Of a stretch of 64,000 nt of DNA, positions 37,597 to 58,182 are shown in pieces. The notes under the pieces were generated by a model that saw only the letters and a list, made by a program, of their open reading frames with translations, made no database searches and was not told the DNA's origin. The first letter of the stretch is position 1. Every line of letters begins with the position of its first letter. The DNA comes from a virus (lineage: Duplodnaviria > Caudoviricetes): the IMG/VR virus record IMGVR_UViG_2687453284_000002, positions 1,700 to 65,699 of that record; one strand, 5' to 3'. The translations under genes and the position numbers were made by a program.

Positions 37597-38655
37597 ATGG
37601 GCGATCTATCGATTCTGATATCGCTGCTGTCGATCGAGCGGCAGCTCCACCTCAACCGCGTCTTCGCCCGAGAGTTTGACCTTGTCGCTCAGCTGCTGTC
37701 CAACGTGGTCGACGACGTCAATCGGAAGCTTGACCGCGAGGGGCAACTCACCGATTTCCGCAGGGACCGCCTGCAACGGATCGTCAACGAGATTCAGGAG
37801 CTTGTGTCCGGCCGCTACGCAGAGCTCGGTGAGCAGCTGCGGGACGATCTAAAGGATCTGGCTGGCCAAGAGGCAAAGTGGGCGATGACCAGCCTGAACG
37901 GATCCGTCGGCGTGGACCTGCTGAAGGCCGCGCCGCCTACCGCAGTACTCAATGCCCTAGTGGATGCCGGCTCGTTCCAGGGGGCGCTGTTGTCAGACTG
38001 GCTGGACAAGCAGTCCGGCGACACGGCATTCCGCGTTACCAAACAGATGCGCCTCGGGATAGCCCAGAGCGAGACAAACGCGGAGATCGTGCGGCGCATT
38101 GCTGGGTCGAAACGGCTTGGGATTTCGGGCATTCTGGAGATCAGCCGCCGCGACGCTGAGGCGCTAGTGATCACCGCGGCGCAGACGGTCACGCAGCGGG
38201 CGAGCATGAGGGTGTACGAGGCGAACCCTGACCTGCTGGTCGGCTGGTTCCAACTCTCGACCCTTGACGGCAGGACATCGGACATCTGCATGGCCTACAG
38301 CGGCAAGGAGTGGGACAAGGACTTCAAGCCGGTCGGCCACAAACTACCGTTTAACAACGGCTGCCCGCGGCACTTTCGTTGCCGCAGCCGGATCCTGCCG
38401 AAGTTTCCGGAGCAATACTCTGGGACTGACATCCCGCGGTTCAAGCCGTCGGTGCGCGCCAGCATTGACGGCTACGTCGACGCAAACATCACCTTCGAGA
38501 GGTTTCTGGAGAAGAAGGGGGTGGCGTTCCAGGATGAAATGCTCGGCCCGGGGCGGGCCACTATGTGGAGAGATGGCAAGATTTCCCTGTCCCAGTTGCT
38601 TGACCAGAGGGGGCGGCCGATGACCCTCGATCAACTGAGGAAGAAGTATGAGTGA
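37597..38655 (+). CDS. Minor head protein (SPP1 gp7/Mu gpF family)
   Basis: STLDGRTSDIC...G...P.HFRCRS. Confidence 0.9.
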   Translation: MGDLSILISLLSIERQLHLNRVFAREFDLVAQLLSNVVDDVNRKLDREGQLTDFRRDRLQRIVNEIQELVSGRYAELGEQLRDDLKDLAGQEAKWAMTSLNGSVGVDLLKAAPPTAVLNALVDAGSFQGALLSDWLDKQSGDTAFRVTKQMRLGIAQSETNAEIVRRIAGSKRLGISGILEISRRDAEALVITAAQTVTQRASMRVYEANPDLLVGWFQLSTLDGRTSDICMAYSGKEWDKDFKPVGHKLPFNNGCPRHFRCRSRILPKFPEQYSGTDIPRFKPSVRASIDGYVDANITFERFLEKKGVAFQDEMLGPGRATMWRDGKISLSQLLDQRGRPMTLDQLRKKYE

Positions 38656-38778: not shown

Positions 38779-40765
38779 GTGCGCCGTGCAAAGGCACGGT
38801 TTCTCAGCGGGTGCGAATCCCGCCCGGCAACTCTCGCTCCAGCCGGTAGCAATCGGAGCAGTCGTGGAGGTAACGAAGCGGCTGAAGCCTTCGATGTAGA
38901 GGGTCATGTAAGTGACTTGGCGAGTATGCAGGCCGTAACGTGAGTGAACGCTGAGCAGGCCTCGAAAGACGCAATGCGGAAGCCGACCCGTCGGAATATC
39001 GGGGAAGGCTGCCACCGTGGGGGAAGAGAGCGAAACATGCACCCCGCGGTTCCGCCGGGGTAGTGGCGACAGCATGCATACAAGAGGGAAACCGATGCAA
39101 CACGGGAAGCCCCGTGCGTGGTCGAGCGCAACGACCAACCGGAAGCCGGTGACGGACAGGCCGGGCGCATAGGGGTGGCGGAGAGGCCCGTATTACCGAG
39201 GAAGCTGGGTAATGCCAGTGGAGGAAAGGGGCCTCAGTTCAGAACCAACGTTGAAAGTGGGAAAGGACAGGAGATTGGGAAACCTAGCAACTCCGATTAG
39301 CGTTCAGGGACTACGGACGGCGTTACATGCGAAAGCGAAGGAAGAACCCGAGTTTCGCTTCTATGCCTTGTACGACAAGATCTATCGAATGGACGTGCTA
39401 AGGCACGCCTATGCGTGTTGCCGCGCCAACAAGGGGGCACCGGGTGTAGACGGCCTGACGTTCGATGATGTTGAGCAGTATGGGCAGGAGCGATGGCTTG
39501 GGGAATTGGCGCAGCAGCTTCGGGATGGAACGTATCGTCCGGAAGCGGTAAGAAGGGTCTATATTCCAAAGCCGAACGGCAAACTCAGGCCGCTTGGCAT
39601 TCCGCGACTGGCGGAAAGGGTGTGTCAGACGGCGGCGATGCTGGTCTTGGAGCCAATCTTCGAGGCCGATCTGCCGCCAGAACAGCATGCCTACCGACAA
39701 AACCGGAGTGCACAAAGCGCTGTGCGCGAGGTACACGGGCTACTGGCCAGTGGCCACAAGGATGTTGTGGACGCCGACCTGTCCGGGTACTTCGACACGA
39801 TCCCGCACGTCGAACTCATGAAATCGGTAGCACGCCGGGTTGTTGATAGGCGTGTTCTGCATCTGGTGAAGCTCTGGCTGGATGCCCCGGTGGAAGAGGA
39901 GGATGAGCGAGGTCGCAAGAAGCGCACGACGTCCAATCGGGATACCAAGCGGGGCATTCCGCAGGGCTCGCCGATCTCACCCCTACTGTCCAATCTGTAC
40001 ATGCGACGATTTATCTTGGGGTGGAAGAAGGCTGGCTTGGAACAGCGGCTTGGTGCTCGGATCGTCAATTATGCCGACGATCTGGTCATCTGCTGTAAGG
40101 GCAGCAATGCCCAGAAGGCGCTCGCCGCCATGCGGCAGATGATGGGCCTGCTTAAGCTTACGGTGAACGAAGAAAAGACCCGGATTTGCCGCCTTCCGGA
40201 TGGCGAGTTCGACTTCCTGGGGTACACCTTTGGTCGGCGCTACTCGGTCAAGACTCGGCGGCCGTACATCGCCGCTCGACCGTCGCGAAAGAGCATAAAG
40301 CGCATGACTGAAACGGTGCGTATCCAGACAGGCCGAAACATGGCATGGATGGATGCCGGGGAAATGGTGAAGCGTCTGAATCAGAAACTTGGCGGATGGG
40401 CCAACTACTTTAGCCTCGGCCCGGTCACTCCTGCCTATCGGTTCCTCGACAAGTACACCACAAACCGGCTCCGCCGATGGTTGTGCAAGAAGCACAAGCA
40501 GCGCAGTGGGGGAGTAGCGCGCTACCCCGATGAGTATCTCTACCAGCAGCTTGGACTCATCCGCCTGCCAAAGCTTCCGCAGAACCTTCCGTGGGCGAAG
40601 GCATGATGTTCTGTCCGAGAGCCGGATGCGTTAGTAGCGCACGTCCGGTTCGATGAGCGGGATGTGAAAACGGAGCCACGGTTCGGCTAATGAGGCACCG
40701 CCAAACGAAAGGGGCGGCTACTGATATGCAGAACCTAACGCCACCGCGTCACATCTCGACTCTAC
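38779..40765 (+). mobile_element. Group II intron (ribozyme plus RT ORF), apparently intact
   Basis: 5' GTGCG; DV GAGCCGGATGCG...CGCACGTCCGGTTC; 3' ...CGACTCTAC; EBS1 GGAATAT (38993-38999) is complementary to the 5' exon ATATTCC (38772-38778). Confidence 0.95.
39275..40606 (+). CDS. ltrA: Group II intron reverse transcriptase/maturase, no endonuclease domain
   Basis: NKGAPGVDG, RPLGIP, DADLSGYFDTIPH, GIPQGSPISPLLSNLY, YADD, FDFLGY, GWANYF; start codon uncertain. Confidence 0.95.
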   Translation: MGNLATPISVQGLRTALHAKAKEEPEFRFYALYDKIYRMDVLRHAYACCRANKGAPGVDGLTFDDVEQYGQERWLGELAQQLRDGTYRPEAVRRVYIPKPNGKLRPLGIPRLAERVCQTAAMLVLEPIFEADLPPEQHAYRQNRSAQSAVREVHGLLASGHKDVVDADLSGYFDTIPHVELMKSVARRVVDRRVLHLVKLWLDAPVEEEDERGRKKRTTSNRDTKRGIPQGSPISPLLSNLYMRRFILGWKKAGLEQRLGARIVNYADDLVICCKGSNAQKALAAMRQMMGLLKLTVNEEKTRICRLPDGEFDFLGYTFGRRYSVKTRRPYIAARPSRKSIKRMTETVRIQTGRNMAWMDAGEMVKRLNQKLGGWANYFSLGPVTPAYRFLDKYTTNRLRRWLCKKHKQRSGGVARYPDEYLYQQLGLIRLPKLPQNLPWAKA

Positions 40766-40776
40766 CGATTTATTCC

Positions 40777-40810
40777 AGCGCCCGCGGGCTTCGGTCTGCG
40801 GGCGCTTTTT
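40777..40810 (+). terminator. Intrinsic terminator just downstream of the intron
   Basis: AGCGCCCGCGGGC-TTCG-GTCTGCGGGCGCT followed by TTTT. Confidence 0.85.
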
Positions 40811-40896
40811 CATTGCCCGAGCGGTGGATGCCGCCGGGCGCAACGCCGAGGAATCGGCAACCGCACTGAGGCTGGATAGCCAAGGAAACAGCAACC

Positions 40897-41682
40897 ATGA
40901 AACTGAAGCTCGACGAACAAGGCAACGTAGTTCTCCAGGACGGCAAGCCGGTGTACATCCACGACGACGGCAAGGAGGTGGCATTCGACGCCCCCTCAGC
41001 CGTGTCAAAGATCACCGCGCTGAATGCCGAGGCCCGCAGTCACCGCGAGGCCAAGGAAGCAGCCGAGACCAAGCTCAAGGCGTTCGATGGAATCGAGGAT
41101 GGCGAAGCAGCCCGGAAGGCGCTGGAGACCATCAAGAACATCGATGAAGGCAAGCTGATCGCCGCCGGCAAGGTCGAAGAGATCAAGGCCGCGGCGCAGA
41201 AGGCCGCCCAAGAGCAAGTCGCCGCCGCCAGCAAGGCGCACGCTGAGGAATTGGCGCGCACGAAGCAGGCGCTCGACAATGTGACTGGGGACCTCTACGC
41301 CGAAAAGATCGGCGGCAGTTTCACCCGCTCCAAGCTCATCTCGGAAAAGTTCGCCATCCCGGCAGACCTGGTGCAAGCCCGGTTCGGATCGGCGTTCAAG
41401 GTCGAGGACGGGAAGATCGTGGCCTATGACCAGGCCGGCAACAAGATCTTCTCGCGCGCTCGGCCCGGTGACTTGGCCGACTTCGATGAGGCCCTCGAAA
41501 CCCTGGTCGACCAATACCCCTACAAGGAGCAGATCCTGAAGGGCACGGGTGCGTCTGGCGGTGGGGCGGGCGGCGGCCCGGGCGCTGGCGGAAACAACCA
41601 ACTCAAGGGCAATCTCGGCGGAACGCGGGAAGAGCGCACCGCCGCCATTGCCAGTCGATTCCCTGAACTTTCGAAAGGCTAA
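40897..41682 (+). CDS. Head scaffolding protein (DUF6651-like)
   Basis: MKLKLD..G.VV..DGKPVY..DDGKE, coiled coil, ADFDEALE.LV..YP.K..IL; precedes the capsid gene. Confidence 0.85.
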   Translation: MKLKLDEQGNVVLQDGKPVYIHDDGKEVAFDAPSAVSKITALNAEARSHREAKEAAETKLKAFDGIEDGEAARKALETIKNIDEGKLIAAGKVEEIKAAAQKAAQEQVAAASKAHAEELARTKQALDNVTGDLYAEKIGGSFTRSKLISEKFAIPADLVQARFGSAFKVEDGKIVAYDQAGNKIFSRARPGDLADFDEALETLVDQYPYKEQILKGTGASGGGAGGGPGAGGNNQLKGNLGGTREERTAAIASRFPELSKG

Positions 41683-41685
41683 GCA

Positions 41686-42672
41686 ATGTCCCTCTCTCAA
41701 ATGCAGGTGTTCAACAAGTACATCATGCCGGCGATCATCGAGACGCTGGCGCAAATGGTGGACAAGTTCAACCAGGCCAGCAATGGCGCCATTCGGCTGA
41801 CCACCGAAGGCTTCGAAGGCGACTTCCTGCAGGAGTCGTTCTTCGCGGCCATCCACTCTGCACAGCGTCGCGTCGATCGCTATGCCGCCAATGGCAATGC
41901 AGCGCCCACCGATCTGACCCAGCTGAAGCACAGCTCGGTCAAGGTCGCAGGCGGCTTCGGTCCGATTCGCTTTGAGCCCTCACAGCTTACCTGGCTGAAC
42001 AAGCCGACTGCCGAAGGCATCGAGGTGGCGTCCCGCAACTTCGCCGAGGCGATGCTGGCCGACCAGCTGAACACGGCGATCATGGCGCTGGTGGCTGCGA
42101 TCAGCAACAACGTTGACGCCGTCAACGACGTGTCTGCCGCAAACGGCATCAGCTACGTTGCCATGAACGAGGCGCACGGCAAGTTCGGTGACCACAGCGG
42201 CAATCTGGTGGCGCAGATCATGAACGGCGTCACCTTCCACAAGCTGATCGGTGCCAACCTGGCCAACGCCCAGCATCTGTTCCAGGCGCAAAACGTGCGC
42301 GTGGTCGACATCCTGGGTAAGCCGGTGGTGGTGACCGACTCGCCCGCGCTGTCGACTCCGGCGGTGGTCGGCCCGCCGGCCGTACCTGCAAAGCTGCGGG
42401 TGCTGTCCCTGGCTGAAGGTGCGGCGACCGTCTCCGATGGCTCGGACGTCATCAGCAACATCGAGACCTCGAACGGCAAGGAGCGGATCGAGACCACGAT
42501 GCAGGTGGACTACACCTTCGGCCTTGGCCTGAAGGGCTACACCTGGGATGAAGCAAACGGCGGCAAGTCGCCTACCGATGCGAAGCTGGCGACCGGCGCC
42601 AACTGGGACCAAACCGCTTCCAGCATCAAACACACCGCCGGCGTCATTACCATCGGCGACGCCTCGAAGTAA
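41686..42672 (+). CDS. Major capsid protein
   Basis: 328 aa after the scaffold gene; strong codon bias; FN.ASNGAI, LKGY.WD...GGKSPTDA.L.TG.NW. Confidence 0.9.
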   Translation: MSLSQMQVFNKYIMPAIIETLAQMVDKFNQASNGAIRLTTEGFEGDFLQESFFAAIHSAQRRVDRYAANGNAAPTDLTQLKHSSVKVAGGFGPIRFEPSQLTWLNKPTAEGIEVASRNFAEAMLADQLNTAIMALVAAISNNVDAVNDVSAANGISYVAMNEAHGKFGDHSGNLVAQIMNGVTFHKLIGANLANAQHLFQAQNVRVVDILGKPVVVTDSPALSTPAVVGPPAVPAKLRVLSLAEGAATVSDGSDVISNIETSNGKERIETTMQVDYTFGLGLKGYTWDEANGGKSPTDAKLATGANWDQTASSIKHTAGVITIGDASK

Positions 42673-42728
42673 GCCGTAAATCGCTGTGGTGGTGGGGCTT
42701 CGGCCTCACCGCCTCATGGAGAGAGCAT

Positions 42729-43238
42729 ATGAATATCCGAGAGATTTGGTACGAGCCGCATCCGGTGTCGCCTCAACGCAAGGCCGAGCTGCGCGCCATG
42801 GGAGTGCAGGTTGTGGACGCTGTCTTCAAGCCAGAAGGCTACGAGAACCCTCCGCTCCGGAATGCGGAAGGGTTGTGGGCGGATGGGCCTACCATTGCTG
42901 AGTTCATTGCGGCCGGCTACCCGCCCACAGAGTATCCACCGCATGGCTACGCGCCGCGCAGCACTGCCGAAGAGATCGCTTCCGCCATCGCGGCTGCAAG
43001 CGCAATCGCGCCTGAGGGTGGCCAGCGTCCGGACGGCAGCGCTGCTGGGGTGCAGATCGACGGCCAAGGCCTTGGGGCGATCCATGGCGACAAGCCAGCC
43101 GATACGAACGGCGATGGCAAGCTCGGCATCGAAGAGATCCGTATTGCCTTGACTGCGAAGGGCATCAATTTCGATCCGAAGGCGAAAAAGGCAGACCTGC
43201 AGGCCCTGCTGGACGCCGCCAACAAGCCGCAATCCTGA
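42729..43238 (+). CDS. Head-associated protein with EF-hand-like loop and HeH-like C-terminus
   Basis: IWYEPHPVS.RKAELR; DTNGDGKLGIEE; L.AKGI.FDPKAKKADL.ALL. Confidence 0.75.
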   Translation: MNIREIWYEPHPVSPQRKAELRAMGVQVVDAVFKPEGYENPPLRNAEGLWADGPTIAEFIAAGYPPTEYPPHGYAPRSTAEEIASAIAAASAIAPEGGQRPDGSAAGVQIDGQGLGAIHGDKPADTNGDGKLGIEEIRIALTAKGINFDPKAKKADLQALLDAANKPQS

Positions 43239-43241
43239 TCC

Positions 43242-43736
43242 ATGGCAATCGACACTACCACTGGCAGCCCGACAGCCGACAGCTACGTGTCGGTGGCCGA
43301 GGCGGACGCCTATCACAGCAAGCGCGGCAATACGGCATGGGCTGGTGTGGCAGCGGACGATAAGGAATCGGCCCTGGTGCGGGCTACCGGCTACGTCGAC
43401 GCGGAGTACTCGTGGAAGGGAGTACGGGCTTCCGCTGGCCAGGCGCTCGCTTGGCCGAGGTATGACGTTAGGACGGATGGATACCCGGTCGACCCCGATG
43501 TGGTCCCGCAGCGCGTCAAAGACGCGGTGTGCGAGCTCGCCCTGAAGACGAGGACCGGCGAACTTTCGCCGGACATATCACCGCAGCAGGTGGTCGAGCA
43601 GACGGTAGGGCCGATCACTCGAAAGTTCGCTCCAGCCGAGCGCAATGGCGGTCAGAAGCGGTATGCCTACGTCGATTCGCTTCTGCGCCAGCTGGTGGCG
43701 GGTGGAGGCGGGCAGATTCGTTTGGTCCGCGCATGA
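43242..43736 (+). CDS. Head-tail adaptor (DnaT-like family)
   Basis: ADSYVSVAEADAYH..RG, L.RAT.Y.D, QALAWPR, VP..VK.A.CELA, VGPI. Confidence 0.88.
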   Translation: MAIDTTTGSPTADSYVSVAEADAYHSKRGNTAWAGVAADDKESALVRATGYVDAEYSWKGVRASAGQALAWPRYDVRTDGYPVDPDVVPQRVKDAVCELALKTRTGELSPDISPQQVVEQTVGPITRKFAPAERNGGQKRYAYVDSLLRQLVAGGGGQIRLVRA

Positions 43737-44164
43737 GCGACAACGCCTTTATCCATCGGGACGCCTTTAATCTGCTGTGTGCCGACCGCATCGGCTACGG
43801 CATGAGCAGATCTGTTTTCTCTAGCCGCGTTTTGCCGGATTGCGTGGTGAAGGTCGAGGAGGACGCTGGCCGGTTCCAGAACGTGATTGAGTGGGAGATC
43901 TGGCAGCGCGTGCAAGGCACCGACATCGAGAAGTGGTTCGCACCATGCCGCTGGATCAGCCCGAACGGCGGCGTGCTGGTGATGGCGCGTACCACGCCTG
44001 CTATCGAATATCCGGACAAGATGCCGGTCTTCCTGTGCGATTTCAAACGCACGAACTATGGCGTCTATGACGGTCGCCTGGTCTGCCACGACTACGGCAC
44101 CAGCCTAATCTTCGAGCACGGCATGACCAAGCGCATGCGAAAAGCGGAATGGTGGGACGCATGA
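43733..44164 (+). CDS. Minimal protein-kinase-like protein (143 aa)
   Basis: IGYGMSRSVF, VVK, QNVIE, DFKRTN and DYG in kinase order; ATGA overlaps at both ends. Confidence 0.72.
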   Translation: MSDNAFIHRDAFNLLCADRIGYGMSRSVFSSRVLPDCVVKVEEDAGRFQNVIEWEIWQRVQGTDIEKWFAPCRWISPNGGVLVMARTTPAIEYPDKMPVFLCDFKRTNYGVYDGRLVCHDYGTSLIFEHGMTKRMRKAEWWDA

Positions 44165-44535
44165 GTACCTTCTACGAGGAGATGGCGGCGCTAGCGCAAG
44201 AGCTGCTGGCAGAGTTCGGAAAGCCGCTGACGCTGCGCCGGGTGGTTACGGGTGACTATGATCCGGACAGCGGCACGGTGCCGGAGGCTCCCGTGGAATA
44301 TCCGGGCACCGGCGCGCTATTCGACTACGAGTCGGTGGGCTCCGGCCAGACGTGGATCCCCAGCACGCTGATTGAGGTCGGCGACAAGCAGTGCTTGCTG
44401 TCGCCGACGGGCATGCCACTGCCTGCCACCGGCGACAAGCTGGTCGACGGCGCCGACGTGTGGCAGGTCCAGAACGTCAAGGCGGTGAACCCGGCCGGCA
44501 CGCCGGTGCTCTATGAGTTGCAACTTCGGAGGTAG
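44161..44535 (+). CDS. Head closure/stopper protein
   Basis: FY..MA..A..LL.EFG, G.YDP..G, I..GDK, V..VNPAGT.VLY.LQLR. Confidence 0.85.
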   Translation: MSTFYEEMAALAQELLAEFGKPLTLRRVVTGDYDPDSGTVPEAPVEYPGTGALFDYESVGSGQTWIPSTLIEVGDKQCLLSPTGMPLPATGDKLVDGADVWQVQNVKAVNPAGTPVLYELQLRR

Positions 44536-44583
44536 TACATGCCAACGTGGTAGATTTGTCGCTTTCCACAACGGGAGTCGGAA

Positions 44584-45066
44584 GTGGCAAGTCCATTCAG
44601 CGGTGCACAACTGCGCGAGGCGCAGAGGCGAGCAGCGGAAACATCACGGTTGCTCGTCGTGGCAAACACCCTTGCGCACAATTTGCAAGAGCGGCTCGCA
44701 AATGGAGTCCAAACTCACTTTGTCGAGCTACAGGAGATCGATATCGGTCATTCTCAAAGGGATTTGGTGTTTCAAACACCCTTTGGGAAAGTCTGGGGCC
44801 GTTTTGGTATCAAGCGAGACGCCAACAATCTGTTTGGGGTGCTTGACCTGTTTCGCCGTGACCGCAAGCTCGATGGCACCACCGAGATGGTGCGGATGCA
44901 TGGATTGCTTTTCAACGACCGCGGCTTAGTGAGCTTAAATGCTACGCAAGAGCTCGATTGGGACTGGGACATAGCAGCGCCAGATGAGGGCGATGCGATG
45001 CAGTTCGCTCGGAATCTTGCAAACACTTTATCAGCCAAATTTCTTGAGCTAGTCACCGACCTGTGA
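44584..45066 (+). CDS. Moron, hypothetical protein
   Basis: Lower GC; GGGAG SD; own terminator; inserted between conserved neck genes. Confidence 0.72.
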   Translation: MASPFSGAQLREAQRRAAETSRLLVVANTLAHNLQERLANGVQTHFVELQEIDIGHSQRDLVFQTPFGKVWGRFGIKRDANNLFGVLDLFRRDRKLDGTTEMVRMHGLLFNDRGLVSLNATQELDWDWDIAAPDEGDAMQFARNLANTLSAKFLELVTDL

Positions 45067-45084
45067 CTAGCTCATAAGCAAGAG

Positions 45085-45109
45085 AGGCCGCCATATTGGC
45101 GGCTTTTTT
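45085..45109 (+). terminator. Moron terminator
   Basis: GGCCGCCA-tat-TGGCGGCT followed by TTTTT. Confidence 0.8.
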
Positions 45110-45110
45110 C

Positions 45111-45518
45111 ATGCCTGCCAACGACGACTTCCGCCGCAAGCTTGCCGCCTTTGTCCAGCGCGCCAAGGACAACCAAGAGAAGGTCATCCGCGAAGTCGCC
45201 GAAGACCTCCTCCAGTCAATCCAGATGCGATCGCCCGTCGATACGGGCCGATTCCTTGGCAACTGGTTCGTGCAGGAGAGCATTAGCCAGCAGACGACTG
45301 AGGAGACTGACCCGACCGGTCAGCAGATGCTGGCGCGCGGGAAGGCTGGCATAGCGGAATTCAAGCCCGGCGGAGTGCTCTACATCGTCAACTTCTTGCC
45401 CTATGCCCAGCGCCTCGAGTACGGCTGGAGTTCGAAGTCGCCTCAGGGCATGGTGCGCGTCACTATCGCTGAGTTCGACCAGTATCTGACCAAGCATGTC
45501 GGGGAATTGAAGCAATGA
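45111..45518 (+). CDS. HK97 gp10-like neck/tail completion protein
   Basis: RSPVDTGRF..NW, N.LPYA.RLEYGWS...P.GMVR. Confidence 0.88.
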   Translation: MPANDDFRRKLAAFVQRAKDNQEKVIREVAEDLLQSIQMRSPVDTGRFLGNWFVQESISQQTTEETDPTGQQMLARGKAGIAEFKPGGVLYIVNFLPYAQRLEYGWSSKSPQGMVRVTIAEFDQYLTKHVGELKQ

Positions 45519-45922
45519 GCCTCTCTTTGATCCGCCGCGCCTTGGAAAAACACCTCCTTGCAATGGCGCCAGTACTGCCCCTGGCGCCTGAGAATGTGCC
45601 ATTCACCCCGACGCCTGGGGCCCCATACCAAAGGGTGCACCTGCTACCTGCCACACCGGCCAATCCGACGATGGGCGATGGTTTCTACCGAGAAGTGGGC
45701 GTCTTCCAGGTCTCTCTCTACTACCCGCAAGGAACCGGGCCGGCTGCGGCACAGACACGCGCTGAGGCGGTCCGAAACTACTTTCCGCGTGGCCTTCTGA
45801 TCCCTGAGGGCGGCATATCGACGCGTGTTGAGCGGACGCCTGCTATCTCCTCCGGTGTGCCGGACGGCGATCGCTGGTGTATCCACGTGTCGATCCAGTA
45901 CTCGGCAGACATCTTCACCTGA
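45515..45922 (+). CDS. Tail terminator protein (DUF4128-like)
   Basis: ENV.F.P, G.FQV...YP.G.G, F.RG. Confidence 0.82.
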   Translation: MSLSLIRRALEKHLLAMAPVLPLAPENVPFTPTPGAPYQRVHLLPATPANPTMGDGFYREVGVFQVSLYYPQGTGPAAAQTRAEAVRNYFPRGLLIPEGGISTRVERTPAISSGVPDGDRWCIHVSIQYSADIFT

Positions 45923-45980
45923 CCCCGCCCCGCGCCAGCGGGGTTTTTTCATCCTTGGCCCGCTGAACGCGGGCTTTTTC
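45923..45980 (+). terminator. Tandem intrinsic terminators
   Basis: CCCCGC...GCGGGG-TTTTT and GGCCCGC...GCGGGC-TTTTT. Confidence 0.75.
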
Positions 45981-45996
45981 GTTTGGAGCACACATC

Positions 45997-47181
45997 ATGA
46001 CCATTGCAAGCGGCGTAGCGAAAAAGGTCGTCATCAGTAAGGAAGCCGCCTGGGGCGTTAAGCCCGCGGCGAATACCGGCCGGTACATGCGCCGGGTGAC
46101 GGCGGAAATCAACCTGGAGCGCCCGACGTTCGAGTCGAACGAGATCCGCACCGACTACCAAACGGCGGACATGCGCCTGGGCACGAAGGCGGTCAACGGC
46201 ACGCTGTCGGGCGAGCTGTCGCCCGAGACTTTCGAACTGATCTTTGCTGCGGCCCTGCGCGCAGCGTGGGTGGCGGGCGAGACTTATACGGGCGCCGACA
46301 TTGCCGCAGCGGACGCCGGCAACAGACTGGTCAAGTCGGCCGGGTCCTGGCTGACCGAGGGATTCAAGATCGGTGACCTGGTGACGGTGTCGGGCTTCGC
46401 CACCTTGTCGAACAACGGCCAGGCGGTGGTGCTGGGCGTGACGGCAACCGATCTGTCCCTCGATAAAGAGTTGGTTACCGAGGCGGAGGGCGCCAACGTG
46501 ACCGTTGCTGTCGCGGGCAAGAAGCTCGCCGTGCCATTGAGCGGGCACACCAACGACAGCTTCGCGATCGAGCAGTGGTACAGCGATATTCTGGCCAGTG
46601 AGCTTGCTCTCGGCGTTCGAATCGGCTCCGTCGCGCTGAATTTCCCGCCGAACGGCATGGCGACCGTCGAAGTGACCCTGATGGGCAAGGACGTCGAGAC
46701 TGACGATGTAGCCTATTTCGTGGCACCGAGCCCGGCCACTGACACCAGCATCTTGGCCGGCACTCGTGGCGCGCTGTACGCCGGCGGTGCCAGCATCGCT
46801 GTCGTGACTGGTCTCAATTTCACGATCGAAGGAGGGATGGAGACGGGCGAGGTCATCGGTTCGCCGACCACGCCGGACGTCTTCGCCGGCCGCGTCCGCG
46901 TCTCGGGCCAGATGACAGCGTACTTCGAGAACAACGACCTATACACCAAGTTCGTCAACGAGGAAGAGACCTCCTTGGTGTTCCGCCTCGATGGCGACCC
47001 CGGCGAGTCGATGATGTTCAAGCTGCCGCGCATCAAGCTGGGCGGCGCATCGAAGGACGACAAGGAAACCGGCGGCATCGTCCAGACCATCCCGTTCACC
47101 GCGCTGCTGAACGTCCACGGCGGTGCGGCTGAGGCCACCGAGAAGACCACAATCGTGATCCAGGACACCACCCTGGTCTGA
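45997..47181 (+). CDS. Major tail tube protein
   Basis: IASGV.K, E..WGV.P, SNEIR.D.Q, VSG..TAYFE; position before the chaperones. Confidence 0.87.
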   Translation: MTIASGVAKKVVISKEAAWGVKPAANTGRYMRRVTAEINLERPTFESNEIRTDYQTADMRLGTKAVNGTLSGELSPETFELIFAAALRAAWVAGETYTGADIAAADAGNRLVKSAGSWLTEGFKIGDLVTVSGFATLSNNGQAVVLGVTATDLSLDKELVTEAEGANVTVAVAGKKLAVPLSGHTNDSFAIEQWYSDILASELALGVRIGSVALNFPPNGMATVEVTLMGKDVETDDVAYFVAPSPATDTSILAGTRGALYAGGASIAVVTGLNFTIEGGMETGEVIGSPTTPDVFAGRVRVSGQMTAYFENNDLYTKFVNEEETSLVFRLDGDPGESMMFKLPRIKLGGASKDDKETGGIVQTIPFTALLNVHGGAAEATEKTTIVIQDTTLV

Positions 47182-47296
47182 TCCAGAGCCCCGCGCAGAA
47201 GGGGCGCATTTACTTACCCCCGGAGCAGCTTCGCTCCACCCTAGGGCGTTACCCGCCGGCATGTGTCGGCGGGCTCTTTTTTCTATGGAGCTTCAC

Positions 47297-47722
47297 ATGA
47301 AAACGGCAGAACAGAACCTGATCAGCATCGACGACCTGGACGTCGTGAAGGCGAGCGAGATTCCCTTTACATTCGATCTGCTGGGCGCGGATGACAAGCC
47401 CACCGGCGTCAAGTTTTCGGTGTACGGCGATCAGTCGGAGCGAGTGCAGAAGTTCATCCGTGACAACCTGAACAAGCGCCGCACCCGGGCTGCGATGGCG
47501 GCCAAGAAGGGGAAGGATCTACCGGTCGACATGATCGAGGACGATGAGGAATTCCTCATCAAGTCCTGCGTCGTCAGGCTAGCGAGCTGGGAGGGCATGA
47601 AGGAGGAATGCACGCCGGAGAACGCCGAAAGGCTGTTCCGCAAGTACCCGAGCGCGCGCCGTCAAGTGCTGGACCAATCGGCTGAAGCGGGAAATTTTAT
47701 GCCGAGCTCGCGCAAGAGCTGA
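47297..47722 (+). CDS. Tail assembly chaperone (G-like)
   Basis: Between tail tube and tape measure genes; ends ...AGNF at the slippery site. Confidence 0.85.
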   Translation: MKTAEQNLISIDDLDVVKASEIPFTFDLLGADDKPTGVKFSVYGDQSERVQKFIRDNLNKRRTRAAMAAKKGKDLPVDMIEDDEEFLIKSCVVRLASWEGMKEECTPENAERLFRKYPSARRQVLDQSAEAGNFMPSSRKS

Positions 47723-57356: not shown

Positions 57357-58182
57357 CCTGCGCGTCATCCACGACAACGCGGTGGATCGAGGCACGGTAA
57401 CGGCGAGCAGTACGGCAGCCGGCTATCCGGCATCAAACCTGTTGACGGATCGCAAGGTGGAAGTCCATCGGAGCACCGGAACGAGCGTCACCTACAAGGT
57501 GACTTGGCCGAGCCTGGAGACCGTTGGGATGATGGCCCTGCCATCTTCCAACGCCAGTGAGACAGCCACGGTCCGCATGCGCGCGTGGGATGCGGAGGTC
57601 GGTGGATCGCTACTGGCCGATACCGGGACGATCTATGCGGCGCCGGGCGCCGATCTGGGGATGTGGGATTGGGAGATGCCGCTCAATTCCAACGCCGCGC
57701 TGTATGGAGGCGACGTGAAGGCGACAGCTTATTTCGCCGACCATGTAGCTGCGCGCCGCGTGGAGATCGAGGTGATCGATCTCGACAATCCGGCCGGCTA
57801 CATCGATCAGGCGCGGCTGGTGGTCGGCCAGTACTGGGAGCCGGAGCACAACGCGGAGCTGGGCAGCGCGCGCGTCAGCGTTATCGACACCAGCAAGGTG
57901 AGTCGCGCCGATTCGGGTGATCCTGTGGTGGACCGCGGCACGCTACATAGTGCGCTCGCGTTCGATATGACGTGGCTTGATCCTGAGGACCGTGCACGCC
58001 TCGCGCACATCCTGCGCGGCTGCGGGCTGTATCGCCCGCTCTTCATCAGCATCTATCCGGAGAGCGAAGATGTGCTGACCGAGCAGGATTGCATGATCTA
58101 TGGCCGCATCAAGGCAATGCCGGCGCTCACGCATGCCCGGCTCGGCTTGTTCGCGTCGCAACTGGAAATTGAGGGCTGGTAA
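57349..58182 (+). CDS. Distal-tail-like/tail tip protein
   Basis: MPNLRVIHDNA.D, NPAGYI...RLVVG.YW.P..NA. Confidence 0.7.
   Translation: MPNLRVIHDNAVDRGTVTASSTAAGYPASNLLTDRKVEVHRSTGTSVTYKVTWPSLETVGMMALPSSNASETATVRMRAWDAEVGGSLLADTGTIYAAPGADLGMWDWEMPLNSNAALYGGDVKATAYFADHVAARRVEIEVIDLDNPAGYIDQARLVVGQYWEPEHNAELGSARVSVIDTSKVSRADSGDPVVDRGTLHSALAFDMTWLDPEDRARLAHILRGCGLYRPLFISIYPESEDVLTEQDCMIYGRIKAMPALTHARLGLFASQLEIEGW

Follow-up and report, generated by a model that had tools for sequence, protein, structure and literature searches.

RIO and Bud32/PRPK kinases do without an activation loop and retain the helices of the C-lobe, and they are cellular ribosome-maturation and tRNA-t6A factors, not phage genes. 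The T7 gp0.7 kinase (T7K) and JSS1_004 are phage-encoded protein-kinase-like (PKL) enzymes which, according to two reports, phosphorylate many host proteins and disarm defence systems (PMC13645617; PMC12345140). The same reports give them a DPV motif instead of DFG and a C-terminal shut-off domain, and place them among the early genes, mainly of Autographiviridae (PMC13645617; PMC12345140). Here, we analyse another phage-encoded PKL gene, located at positions 43733-44164 (+ strand) of a 64,000-nucleotide stretch of a prophage of the Caudoviricetes (IMG/VR record IMGVR_UViG_2687453284_000002, positions 1,700 to 65,699; the whole stretch is called the window hereafter). The encoded protein is a member of phrog_4301 with 143 residues, a mass of 16.6 kDa and a pI of 6.3, and is predicted to consist of a kinase N-lobe followed by the catalytic and metal-binding loops only and a 21-residue tail. 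On balance, we favour the reading of a minimal but active phosphotransferase, most probably a Ser/Thr protein kinase, which would be made here together with the late virion genes.

Catalytic motifs and predicted fold

The initial annotation of this gene had described a stripped-down kinase-like protein on the basis of a series of short motifs, all of which are present in the order and spacing it gave. The Gly-rich loop region I20-F29 (IGYGMSRSVF, 43790-43819) follows the pattern G21-x-G23-x-x-R26-x-V28 and joins strands β1 and β2. The equivalents of the β3 lysine and the αC glutamate are K40 in VVK (residues 38-40; K40 at 43850-43852) and E53 in QNVIE (residues 49-53; E53 at 43889-43891). A hinge-like LVM (residues 82-84) precedes the catalytic-loop equivalent D103-F-K105-R-T-N108 (44039-44056) and D120-Y-G (residues 120-122; 44090-44098), the equivalent of DFG. 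The protein ends 21 residues past G122, and this C-terminal segment (44099-44161) stands in place of a C-lobe.

Conservation was read from an alignment of 90 sequences, comprising the query, 8 of the 120 listed clusters at 90% identity and 81 of the 150 listed clusters at 50% identity; fragments and partial matches were omitted, and the members span 137-176 aa and 92% down to 37% identity to the query. Ten residues are invariant, namely G23, R26, K40, N50, E53, P98, D103, N108, G110 and D120. The conservation check proposed with the initial annotation has been run for lysine, glutamate, aspartate, asparagine and aspartate (K40, E53, D103, N108, D120), each of which is found in 90/90 members. 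Together with G21 (85/90), these residues supply the Gly-rich loop, β3 lysine, αC glutamate, catalytic aspartate, downstream asparagine and metal-binding aspartate of the PKL superfamily. Near-invariant positions (of 90) are V38 (87), W57 (88), A70 (88), S76 (86), G79 (89), P94 (89), V117 (86), Y121 (89) and W140 (84), followed by V28 (81), K105 (80) and G122 (75). The C-terminal segment is conserved at G130 (71/90), R134, W140 and W141 (60/90). Two of the invariant residues, R26 (three residues past the second Gly-loop glycine) and N50 (at the start of a helix), lie outside the classical kinase signature, and positions 101-102 are L/F and C/T, replacing the H-R of HRD. Judged from these homologues, every residue that had been proposed as catalytic is under strict constraint.

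The AlphaFold2 model built on the 90-sequence alignment has a mean predicted local distance difference test score (pLDDT) of 95.3 and a predicted template modelling score (pTM) of 0.87, and none of the five models falls below a pLDDT of 92.5. Its elements, assigned with DSSP, begin with helix 5-15 and the two strands that enclose the Gly loop (16-22 and 26-31), after which come strand 37-42 with K40 and helix 49-60 with E53. Strands 72-75 and 81-85 and a short strand 96-98 follow, and the chain continues through the D103-N108 loop, the hairpin 109-112/115-118 (β7-β8), D120-Y-G, helix 126-129 and strand 135-137. The five-stranded N-lobe sheet (16-22, 26-31, 37-42, 72-75, 81-85) and the αC helix (49-60) of PKL proteins are thus both seen in the model. 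A helical C-lobe core (αE, αF) is not: DSSP assigns no helix of four or more residues between residues 60 and 126, and merely 21 residues follow DYG. As modelled, the protein would therefore be a kinase N-lobe with catalytic and metal-binding loops and a short tail, lacking the αD, αE and αF helices, an activation loop and a C-lobe for substrate binding. The missing C-lobe core marks it as a minimal variant and not an ordinary PKL member. The motif set seems to be more than a chance arrangement, as it is constrained in homologues and falls on the expected elements of a confident model.

Structural comparisons point in the same direction. Foldseek against the PDB gives PKL enzymes in all rows shown, beginning with Rio2 (1zao, E 1.2e-4) and followed by BMPR2, PRPK, APH(2''), CK2, HopBF1 (E 1.2e-3) and OspG (E 2.8e-3). 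VIA-align, which is independent of Foldseek, was run against 48,161 representative chains and returns PKL folds in 49 of the 50 rows shown; the best is DRAK1 (Z 8.8, root-mean-square deviation 3.9, 121 residues aligned) and the single non-PKL row is SAICAR synthetase (Z 7.6). In a viral model library, the independent BFVD model of the homologue from phage PaMx11 ('Uncharacterized protein') superposes with template modelling (TM) scores of 0.89/0.90, and annotated viral Ser/Thr kinases appear lower in the list. Since no single Z-score suffices, the case for the fold rests on the uniformity of the PKL matches and on motif conservation, and on these grounds a PKL fold is nearly certain. The structural match that had been proposed as a check was thus obtained with both tools, and, with the conserved catalytic residues, it upholds the description of a stripped-down kinase-like protein.

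Comparison with described kinase-like families

The best-covering matches in a closer structural comparison are RIO and PRPK/Bud32 proteins, which share with the phage protein the N-lobe and the catalytic and metal-binding loops. RIOK1 (6zxd_z) aligns over 135 residues with Z 9.2 and a root-mean-square deviation of 3.9. PRPK structures reach Z 8.2-8.7 over 133-141 of the 143 residues (7sza_C, Z 8.7, 134 residues; 7szc_A, Z 8.4, 141/143), and Rio1 and Rio2 score about 8. In contrast to the 143-residue model, the solved RIO and PRPK chains have 225-292 residues and are aligned over longer chain ranges, and the protein has no Pfam or NCBIfam match to RIO or Bud32 models. Aminoglycoside-type APH(2'') enzymes score similarly (Z 8.0-8.8, 121-126 residues aligned; APH(2'')-IVa, Z 8.8).

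The smallest solved PKL domains in the match lists are those of OspG, NleH and HopBF1 (169-171, 160 and 175-176 residues, respectively), with Z 7.0-7.3. These are bacterial effectors aimed at eukaryotic hosts. The phage protein is 17-33 residues shorter than these chains. OspG has been crystallised bound to a host E2-ubiquitin conjugate (PDB entry titles), which by analogy may serve as a precedent for a minimal kinase that is completed by a partner. The NCBIfam models of HopBF1 and NleH are each weakly matched by 1 of the 90 members (E 0.004 and 0.02), the protein of the window matches neither, and sequence membership in the HopBF1, NleH or OspG families is not found. Ark1, with a 173-residue chain (8yv5_B, Z 7.2, 109 residues aligned), is likewise a small PKL-fold kinase. 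It is an archaeal tRNA 2'-OH kinase, and hence a minimal PKL able to act on RNA, according to its description (PMC10622864). Ark1 differs in being archaeal and cellular and in having no sequence link to the phage protein, and its Z-score is no better than those of dozens of protein kinases. No solved PKL chain in the match lists is as short as the phage protein; the shortest are NleH1 (160), OspG (169-171), Ark1 (173) and HopBF1 (175-176).

Sequence comparison with cellular kinases yields faint signals. A profile match to the TGF-beta receptor-2 kinase stays below threshold (E 0.65, against PDB sequences), and its HMMER alignment places the Gly loop on GxG, D103-x-K105-x-x-N108 on HRDLKSSN and D120-Y-G on DFG. 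No assignment to the Hanks type follows: Pkinase is not among the 18 Pfam families matched by the 90 members, H-R is lacking at positions 101-102, and the chain ends before any APE or αF region. With YrbL (PF10707, 'PhoP regulatory network protein'), a cellular protein of 185-210 aa whose E. coli representative carries the RefSeq label 'protein kinase-like domain-containing protein', there is a common N-lobe signature, G-x-G-x-x-R-x-x-[YF] ... [IV]-K-[IV]. PF10707 is weakly matched by 19 of the 90 members (best E 0.0032) and the NCBIfam YrbL model weakly by two, and hhalign against E. coli YrbL and two relatives gives E 4e-4 across 30 columns, from the Gly loop to β3. Membership in this family was rejected, because no member reaches the 31.5-bit cut-off and the likeness ends after β3; the genome of the window holds no PF10707 match.

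Identity with the T7K/JSS1_004 kinases was also rejected, given the DYG motif, the lack of extra domains or longer relatives and the lack of a match to PF27024, provided that this model is in the Pfam copy used. A protein-language-model atlas returns unnamed viral clusters only, the nearest named lead being a cluster with 13% PF27024 members (score 0.93). The 5-hydroxymethyldeoxyuridine (5-hmdU) DNA kinase of phage M6 is another protein, since in its description that enzyme is gp54 (PMC5889632) and the M6 homologue of the present protein is ORF081 (57446-57814). As far as its sequence can tell, the protein belongs to no described kinase family.

Family distribution, genomic context and mobility

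The protein matches phrog_4301 (function unknown) with E 2.2e-34, its residues 3-140 aligning to positions 25-185 of 225. Pfam yields no family for it at E<=10, phmmer against PDB sequences yields chance lysozyme matches alone (E 0.17-0.5), NCBIfam yields no significant match for it or for the 90 members, and none of the PADLOC defence models matches it. The family is nevertheless large. A search by words shared with the query gives 260 clusters at the 90% identity level with E<=1e-3. When 1.84 billion representatives are searched exhaustively with phmmer, 1084 clusters at 50% identity reach E<=1e-3 and 755 reach E<=1e-10; among the 1084, the best 150 have lengths of 97-220 aa. No longer or fused relatives occur at 252-2000 aa (single-sequence search) or 309-2000 aa (profile search), which is weak evidence. 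In some members the N-terminus may be extended, or the start codon may have been wrongly assigned: gp39 of phage YuA (27380-27997) is annotated with 205 aa, about 50 N-terminal residues beyond the match to the window's protein, and about 25 leading positions of the phrog_4301 profile are left unmatched by the latter.

Named sources among the listed 90%-identity clusters are Burkholderiales (Cupriavidus, Ramlibacter, Roseateles). By tblastn, the gene is found in 92 sequenced phages, 74 of which infect Pseudomonas (YuA, M6, PaMx11 and related kinds), and the others are phages of Vibrio, Xanthomonas, Stenotrophomonas, sphingomonads, Dinoroseobacter and the cyanobacterium Pseudanabaena. The host genome has a single copy, and when 150 genomes from the host's bacterial family were sampled, the family profile matched two of them, one being that of the window. 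Taken with its occurrence in phages, this indicates phage cargo and not a host core gene.

Among 40 phage records listed, 32 are annotated, all as 'hypothetical protein' save two: PAKlein3 ('serine-threonine kinase') and Pan1 ('cyclin-dependent kinase-like 5 / kinase-like protein'). The bare resemblance to kinases is thus already known through two GenBank labels, and there is no curated Pfam or NCBIfam family. No paper describing the family was found in the literature, although the supplementary homologue table of PMC13645617, which lies outside the search, might list it. The word 'kinase' occurs 0 times in PMC5418858 and in the genome papers of PAKlein3 (10.1101/2024.09.05.611452) and R26L (PMC11806900), and in PMC11946847 it occurs once, for the 5-hmdU kinase.

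In the window, the gene lies between those of the head-tail adaptor Ad1 (43242-43736, + strand; phrog_477, E 1.4e-52; PF20557, E 6.4e-50) and the head-closure protein Hc1 (44161-44535, + strand; phrog_161, E 2.3e-29), within a siphophage late operon that also holds head-morphogenesis (37597), scaffold (40897), major head protein (41686), Neck1 (45096) and tail-terminator (45515) genes. The reading frame is free of stops over its 143 residues, and the ATGA overlaps claimed for both of its ends are found in the sequence: the start codon at 43733-43735 overlaps the Ad1 stop (TGA, 43734-43736), and its own stop (TGA, 44162-44164) overlaps the Hc1 ATG at 44161. The frame remains open upstream as far as a GTG at 43529, and a methionine at the position equivalent to 43733 in 88 of 90 aligned homologues supports the start used here. 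For Hc1, a second candidate in-frame ATG lies further upstream at 44149. When Hc1 is read from 44161, its residues 3-124 align to positions 2-119 of the 120 in phrog_161; because the alignment begins at profile position 2, this start is favoured, and the overlapping start thus seems the better-supported choice, not the sole option. The GC content at third codon positions (GC3) is 0.778 for the gene and 0.68-0.85 for its neighbours. Neither a promoter-like site in 40600-47400 nor a + strand terminator-like site between 40806 and 45927 was found. Together with the two overlaps, this implies, without proving, late-operon expression, in which the protein would be made late by translational coupling with Ad1 and Hc1.

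We compared this arrangement across 102 loci, consisting of the window, 21 loci from reference genomes and 80 from IMG/VR; in 11 of them the PKL protein is identical to that of another locus. Contexts were clustered from the longest open reading frames (ORFs) by BLAST single linkage in high-GC DNA. PHROG scans of 40 neighbour ORFs from 37 loci gave 29 matches, 20 with a named function, and the labels of other loci come from cluster membership or from tblastn searches with proteins of the window. The order Ad1, PKL, Hc1 recurs in 18/102 loci, once with an extra 80-aa ORF between Ad1 and PKL. Furthermore, the PKL gene lies between Hc1 and Neck1 in one locus, downstream of the head-closure gene Hc3 in four, beside TerL in eight (three of them with the order TerL, PKL, portal), beside a portal or portal-like gene in five, and just upstream of TerS in four, one of which follows a Holliday-junction resolvase. 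Directly beside packaging, portal or connector genes are 40/102 loci, a floor because 47/102 are unclassified. Seven more loci have the order phrog_14539, PKL, phrog_14605, or an 80-120-aa ORF in the place of phrog_14539; three of these (L030, L033, L049) have scaffold or capsid homologues upstream within the flank retrieved, and two (L013, L032) show a homologue of the HeH protein only. In another two (L021, L077), PKL stands between a capsid gene and Neck1. In these nine loci, the head-to-tail slot is the same and the small neighbours are different ones. Elsewhere, the gene follows NinB (two loci), precedes a primase/helicase (five) or follows a tail-fibre gene (one), and in YuA and PAKlein3 the homologue lies among early/middle genes. 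The initial annotation had placed the gene in a head-tail joining module, which holds for this prophage and for the 18 loci with the same order and does not extend to the whole family, given the NinB, TerS, TerL-portal, primase/helicase and early/middle contexts. On raw counts, the PKL gene seems to prefer the stretch of the late operon that runs from packaging to connector genes, where it is found most often, though not invariably.

The gene often changes place. The nearest relative of the window's gene (L030) is 91% identical and has different flanking genes. On a quick maximum-likelihood tree, from which three loci were dropped by a length/stop filter (L019, L060, L097) and in which the 11 duplicates were collapsed, the Ad1-PKL-Hc1 context requires nine changes, at least three of them forced by well-supported branches; the context is clustered on the tree nonetheless (0 of 500 shuffles as low). 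An ATGA overlap with the upstream gene, whichever it is, occurs in 35/102 loci and a four-nucleotide overlap downstream in 24. The PKL gene behaves as a promoterless, mobile accessory cassette of the moron-like kind that rides other operons.

Several observations concern its neighbours. An 80-120-aa ORF ending in MPPV[AS]LEV directly precedes PKL with an ATGA overlap in three loci of differing surroundings (L004:3762-4004, L030:3262-3504, L032:381-743), which include the two closest relatives of the window's gene, and is not found in the window; the two genes may travel as a cassette. The phrog_14539 proteins (L049:1221-1616, L050:3112-3504) and Ad1 of the window (43242-43736) have a common tail, G-G-x-x-[IV]-[RK]-[LV]-V-R-A, and look otherwise unrelated; the stops of both overlap the next ATG. 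By hhalign, phrog_14539 and Ad1 align in this 11-column C-terminal tail alone, weakly (E 0.003, probability 10%), and comparison of the phrog_14539/phrog_14605 neighbours with Hc1 gives nothing convincing. We suggest that phrog_14539 and phrog_14605 proteins might be adaptor and closure analogues. The common tail may be a portal-docking tail or a recombination joint.

The late operon of the window has other features of interest. A group II intron (38805-40806) is located between the head-morphogenesis gene (ending at 38655) and the scaffold gene (starting at 40897), with an RF02003 (group-II-D1D4-4) match of 105.8 bits at 38805-38943, an ORF with RVT_1 (E 1.4e-35) and group II maturase (E 9e-17) domains at 39212-40606 and a terminator-like hairpin at 40777-40806. 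Between the major head gene and Ad1, a 169-aa ORF (42729-43238) carries at its C-terminus a motif of the HeH/LEM-like kind (PF12949, E 2.1e-6, narrowly missing the cut-off), and solely through this motif it matches PHROGs labelled as Arc-like repressor; in several related loci, the same C-terminal piece is seen again downstream of the capsid gene. Between Hc1 and Neck1, a 160-aa ORF (44584-45066) has a GC content of 0.534 and a GC3 of 0.571, compared with 0.59-0.65 and 0.68-0.85 in its neighbours. Nothing matches it in PHROGs, Pfam or PADLOC, or by tblastn in the 101 related loci, and it is probably another accessory gene that entered the connector module recently.

Predicted activity and alternative roles

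If the protein is active, ATP-Mg would bind beneath the Gly loop, where K40 and E53 would orient its alpha and beta phosphates. The metals would be held by N108 and D120, K105 would contact the gamma phosphate and D103 would act as the base. The gamma phosphate would then be transferred to a hydroxyl, most likely that of a Ser or Thr in a host or phage protein. As there are no activation loop and no docking helices, the site might be constitutively open and promiscuous, or a partner or the substrate itself might complete it. The D-x-K-x-x-N catalytic loop points to Ser/Thr protein substrates; a lysine in this loop is typical of Ser/Thr protein kinases and differs from the APH or choline-kinase pattern. 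Activity as a phosphotransferase is likely, and action as a protein kinase on host or phage proteins is a plausible, more tentative prediction. The most economical guess for its purpose is a host-directed role in takeover or counter-defence, because such a role would be analogous to that of T7K and JSS1_004 and would be useful whether the gene is expressed early, as in YuA-like phages, or late, as here.

Some points weigh against an active, late-expressed protein kinase. The structural Z-scores of 7-9 are 'middling' by the tool's own scale, and the helices that usually buttress the catalytic loop (αE, αF) are absent, the competence of the scaffold being judged from a predicted model. RIO and PRPK/Bud32 proteins work largely as ATPases inside assemblies, and APH(2'') and Ark1 score as well as protein kinases do, so the fold does not specify a protein substrate. 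Moreover, the early/middle position in YuA and PAKlein3 argues against a function tied to late genes, and, in the subset of neighbours that was annotated, neither a partner gene that recurs next to PKL nor a phosphatase or FHA-type reader was seen.

The similarity to APH(2'') and Ark1 also raises the question of whether an active kinase might act on a small molecule, a sugar or lipid, or a nucleic acid. We consider a non-protein substrate unlikely. The catalytic loop is of the Ser/Thr-kinase type with K105 in 80/90 members, the only sequence links, all below threshold, are with TGF-beta receptor-2, YrbL, HopBF1 and NleH, which are protein kinases or resemble them, no recurrent metabolic or nucleic-acid-modification neighbours are seen, and the 5-hmdU kinase of M6 is the separate gene gp54. 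On the other side stand the tie of APH(2'') with the best structural matches (Z 8.0-8.8), the model's lack of every C-lobe element with which ordinary protein kinases hold peptides, and Ark1 (Z 7.2) as a similarly small PKL protein that acts as an RNA 2'-OH kinase, as its description states (PMC10622864). The missing C-lobe core and the replacement of the H and R of HRD by L/F and C/T at 101-102 would also suit a catalytically dead pseudokinase with a structural or binding function. This is very improbable, given that all 90 members, at identities as low as 37%, have the five phosphotransfer residues and that the two glycines of the Gly loop are kept in 85 and 90 of 90; pseudokinases usually lose some of their catalytic residues.

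The genomic position suggests other roles. A RIO/Bud32-like ATPase or nucleotide switch at the portal vertex, serving packaging termination or head completion, would agree with RIOK1 and PRPK/Bud32 as the matches of greatest coverage, with the direct adjacency of PKL to TerS, TerL, portal, adaptor or head-closure genes in 40/102 loci, with the nine further loci that share this slot past the capsid gene and with the ATGA coupling to an upstream gene in 35/102. It is quite unlikely nonetheless, because the gene also sits in early/middle or replication regions (YuA and PAKlein3; primase/helicase in five loci, NinB in two), near-identical copies have different flanks (91% identity between the window and L030), the Ad1-PKL-Hc1 context needs at least three gains or losses on the quick tree, and presence in 2 of 150 host-family genomes is too patchy for an essential assembly factor. 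We likewise give little credence to a connector- or portal-linked kinase made with terminase, portal, adaptor and head-closure proteins, which would have one of three roles. Such a kinase might be packaged and ejected with the DNA, disarming the defences of the next host before phage gene expression; Alt of phage T4 is a precedent for a packaged host-modifying enzyme. Alternatively, it might neutralise host sensors that are triggered by those late proteins, or it might phosphorylate connector proteins as a step of head completion. A kinase for defence or superinfection exclusion that serves the lysogen would fit carriage on a prophage and the moron-like mobility, and kinase-based defence exists, for example Stk2 of staphylococci. 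We find this hardly credible, since no PADLOC model matches, the gene lacks its own promoter and terminator and is coupled to virion genes by ATGA overlaps, and the family occurs in 92 phage records, 74 of them Pseudomonas phages of YuA, M6 and PaMx11 kinds. A group related to these Pseudomonas phages is possibly obligately lytic, according to PMC11946847, which also counts against a role in lysogens.

Phage kinases have lately gained in importance, and phrog_4301 represents a second phage kinase-like family, unrelated to T7K/JSS1_004. It is much larger than its obscurity suggests, with 1084 clusters and 92 phages and no Pfam, NCBIfam or functional PHROG label. The homologues in widely used, therapeutic-type P. 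aeruginosa phages of the YuA, M6 and PaMx11 kinds make the question of its function directly testable. Within about 140-155 residues, these proteins keep all catalytic residues and discard nearly the whole C-lobe, which is relevant to kinase structure in general. If the connector-linked kinase were to prove true, it would be the first kinase with a role at the portal vertex, on the smallest kinase scaffold so far. If active, the family would define the minimum scaffold for phosphotransfer.

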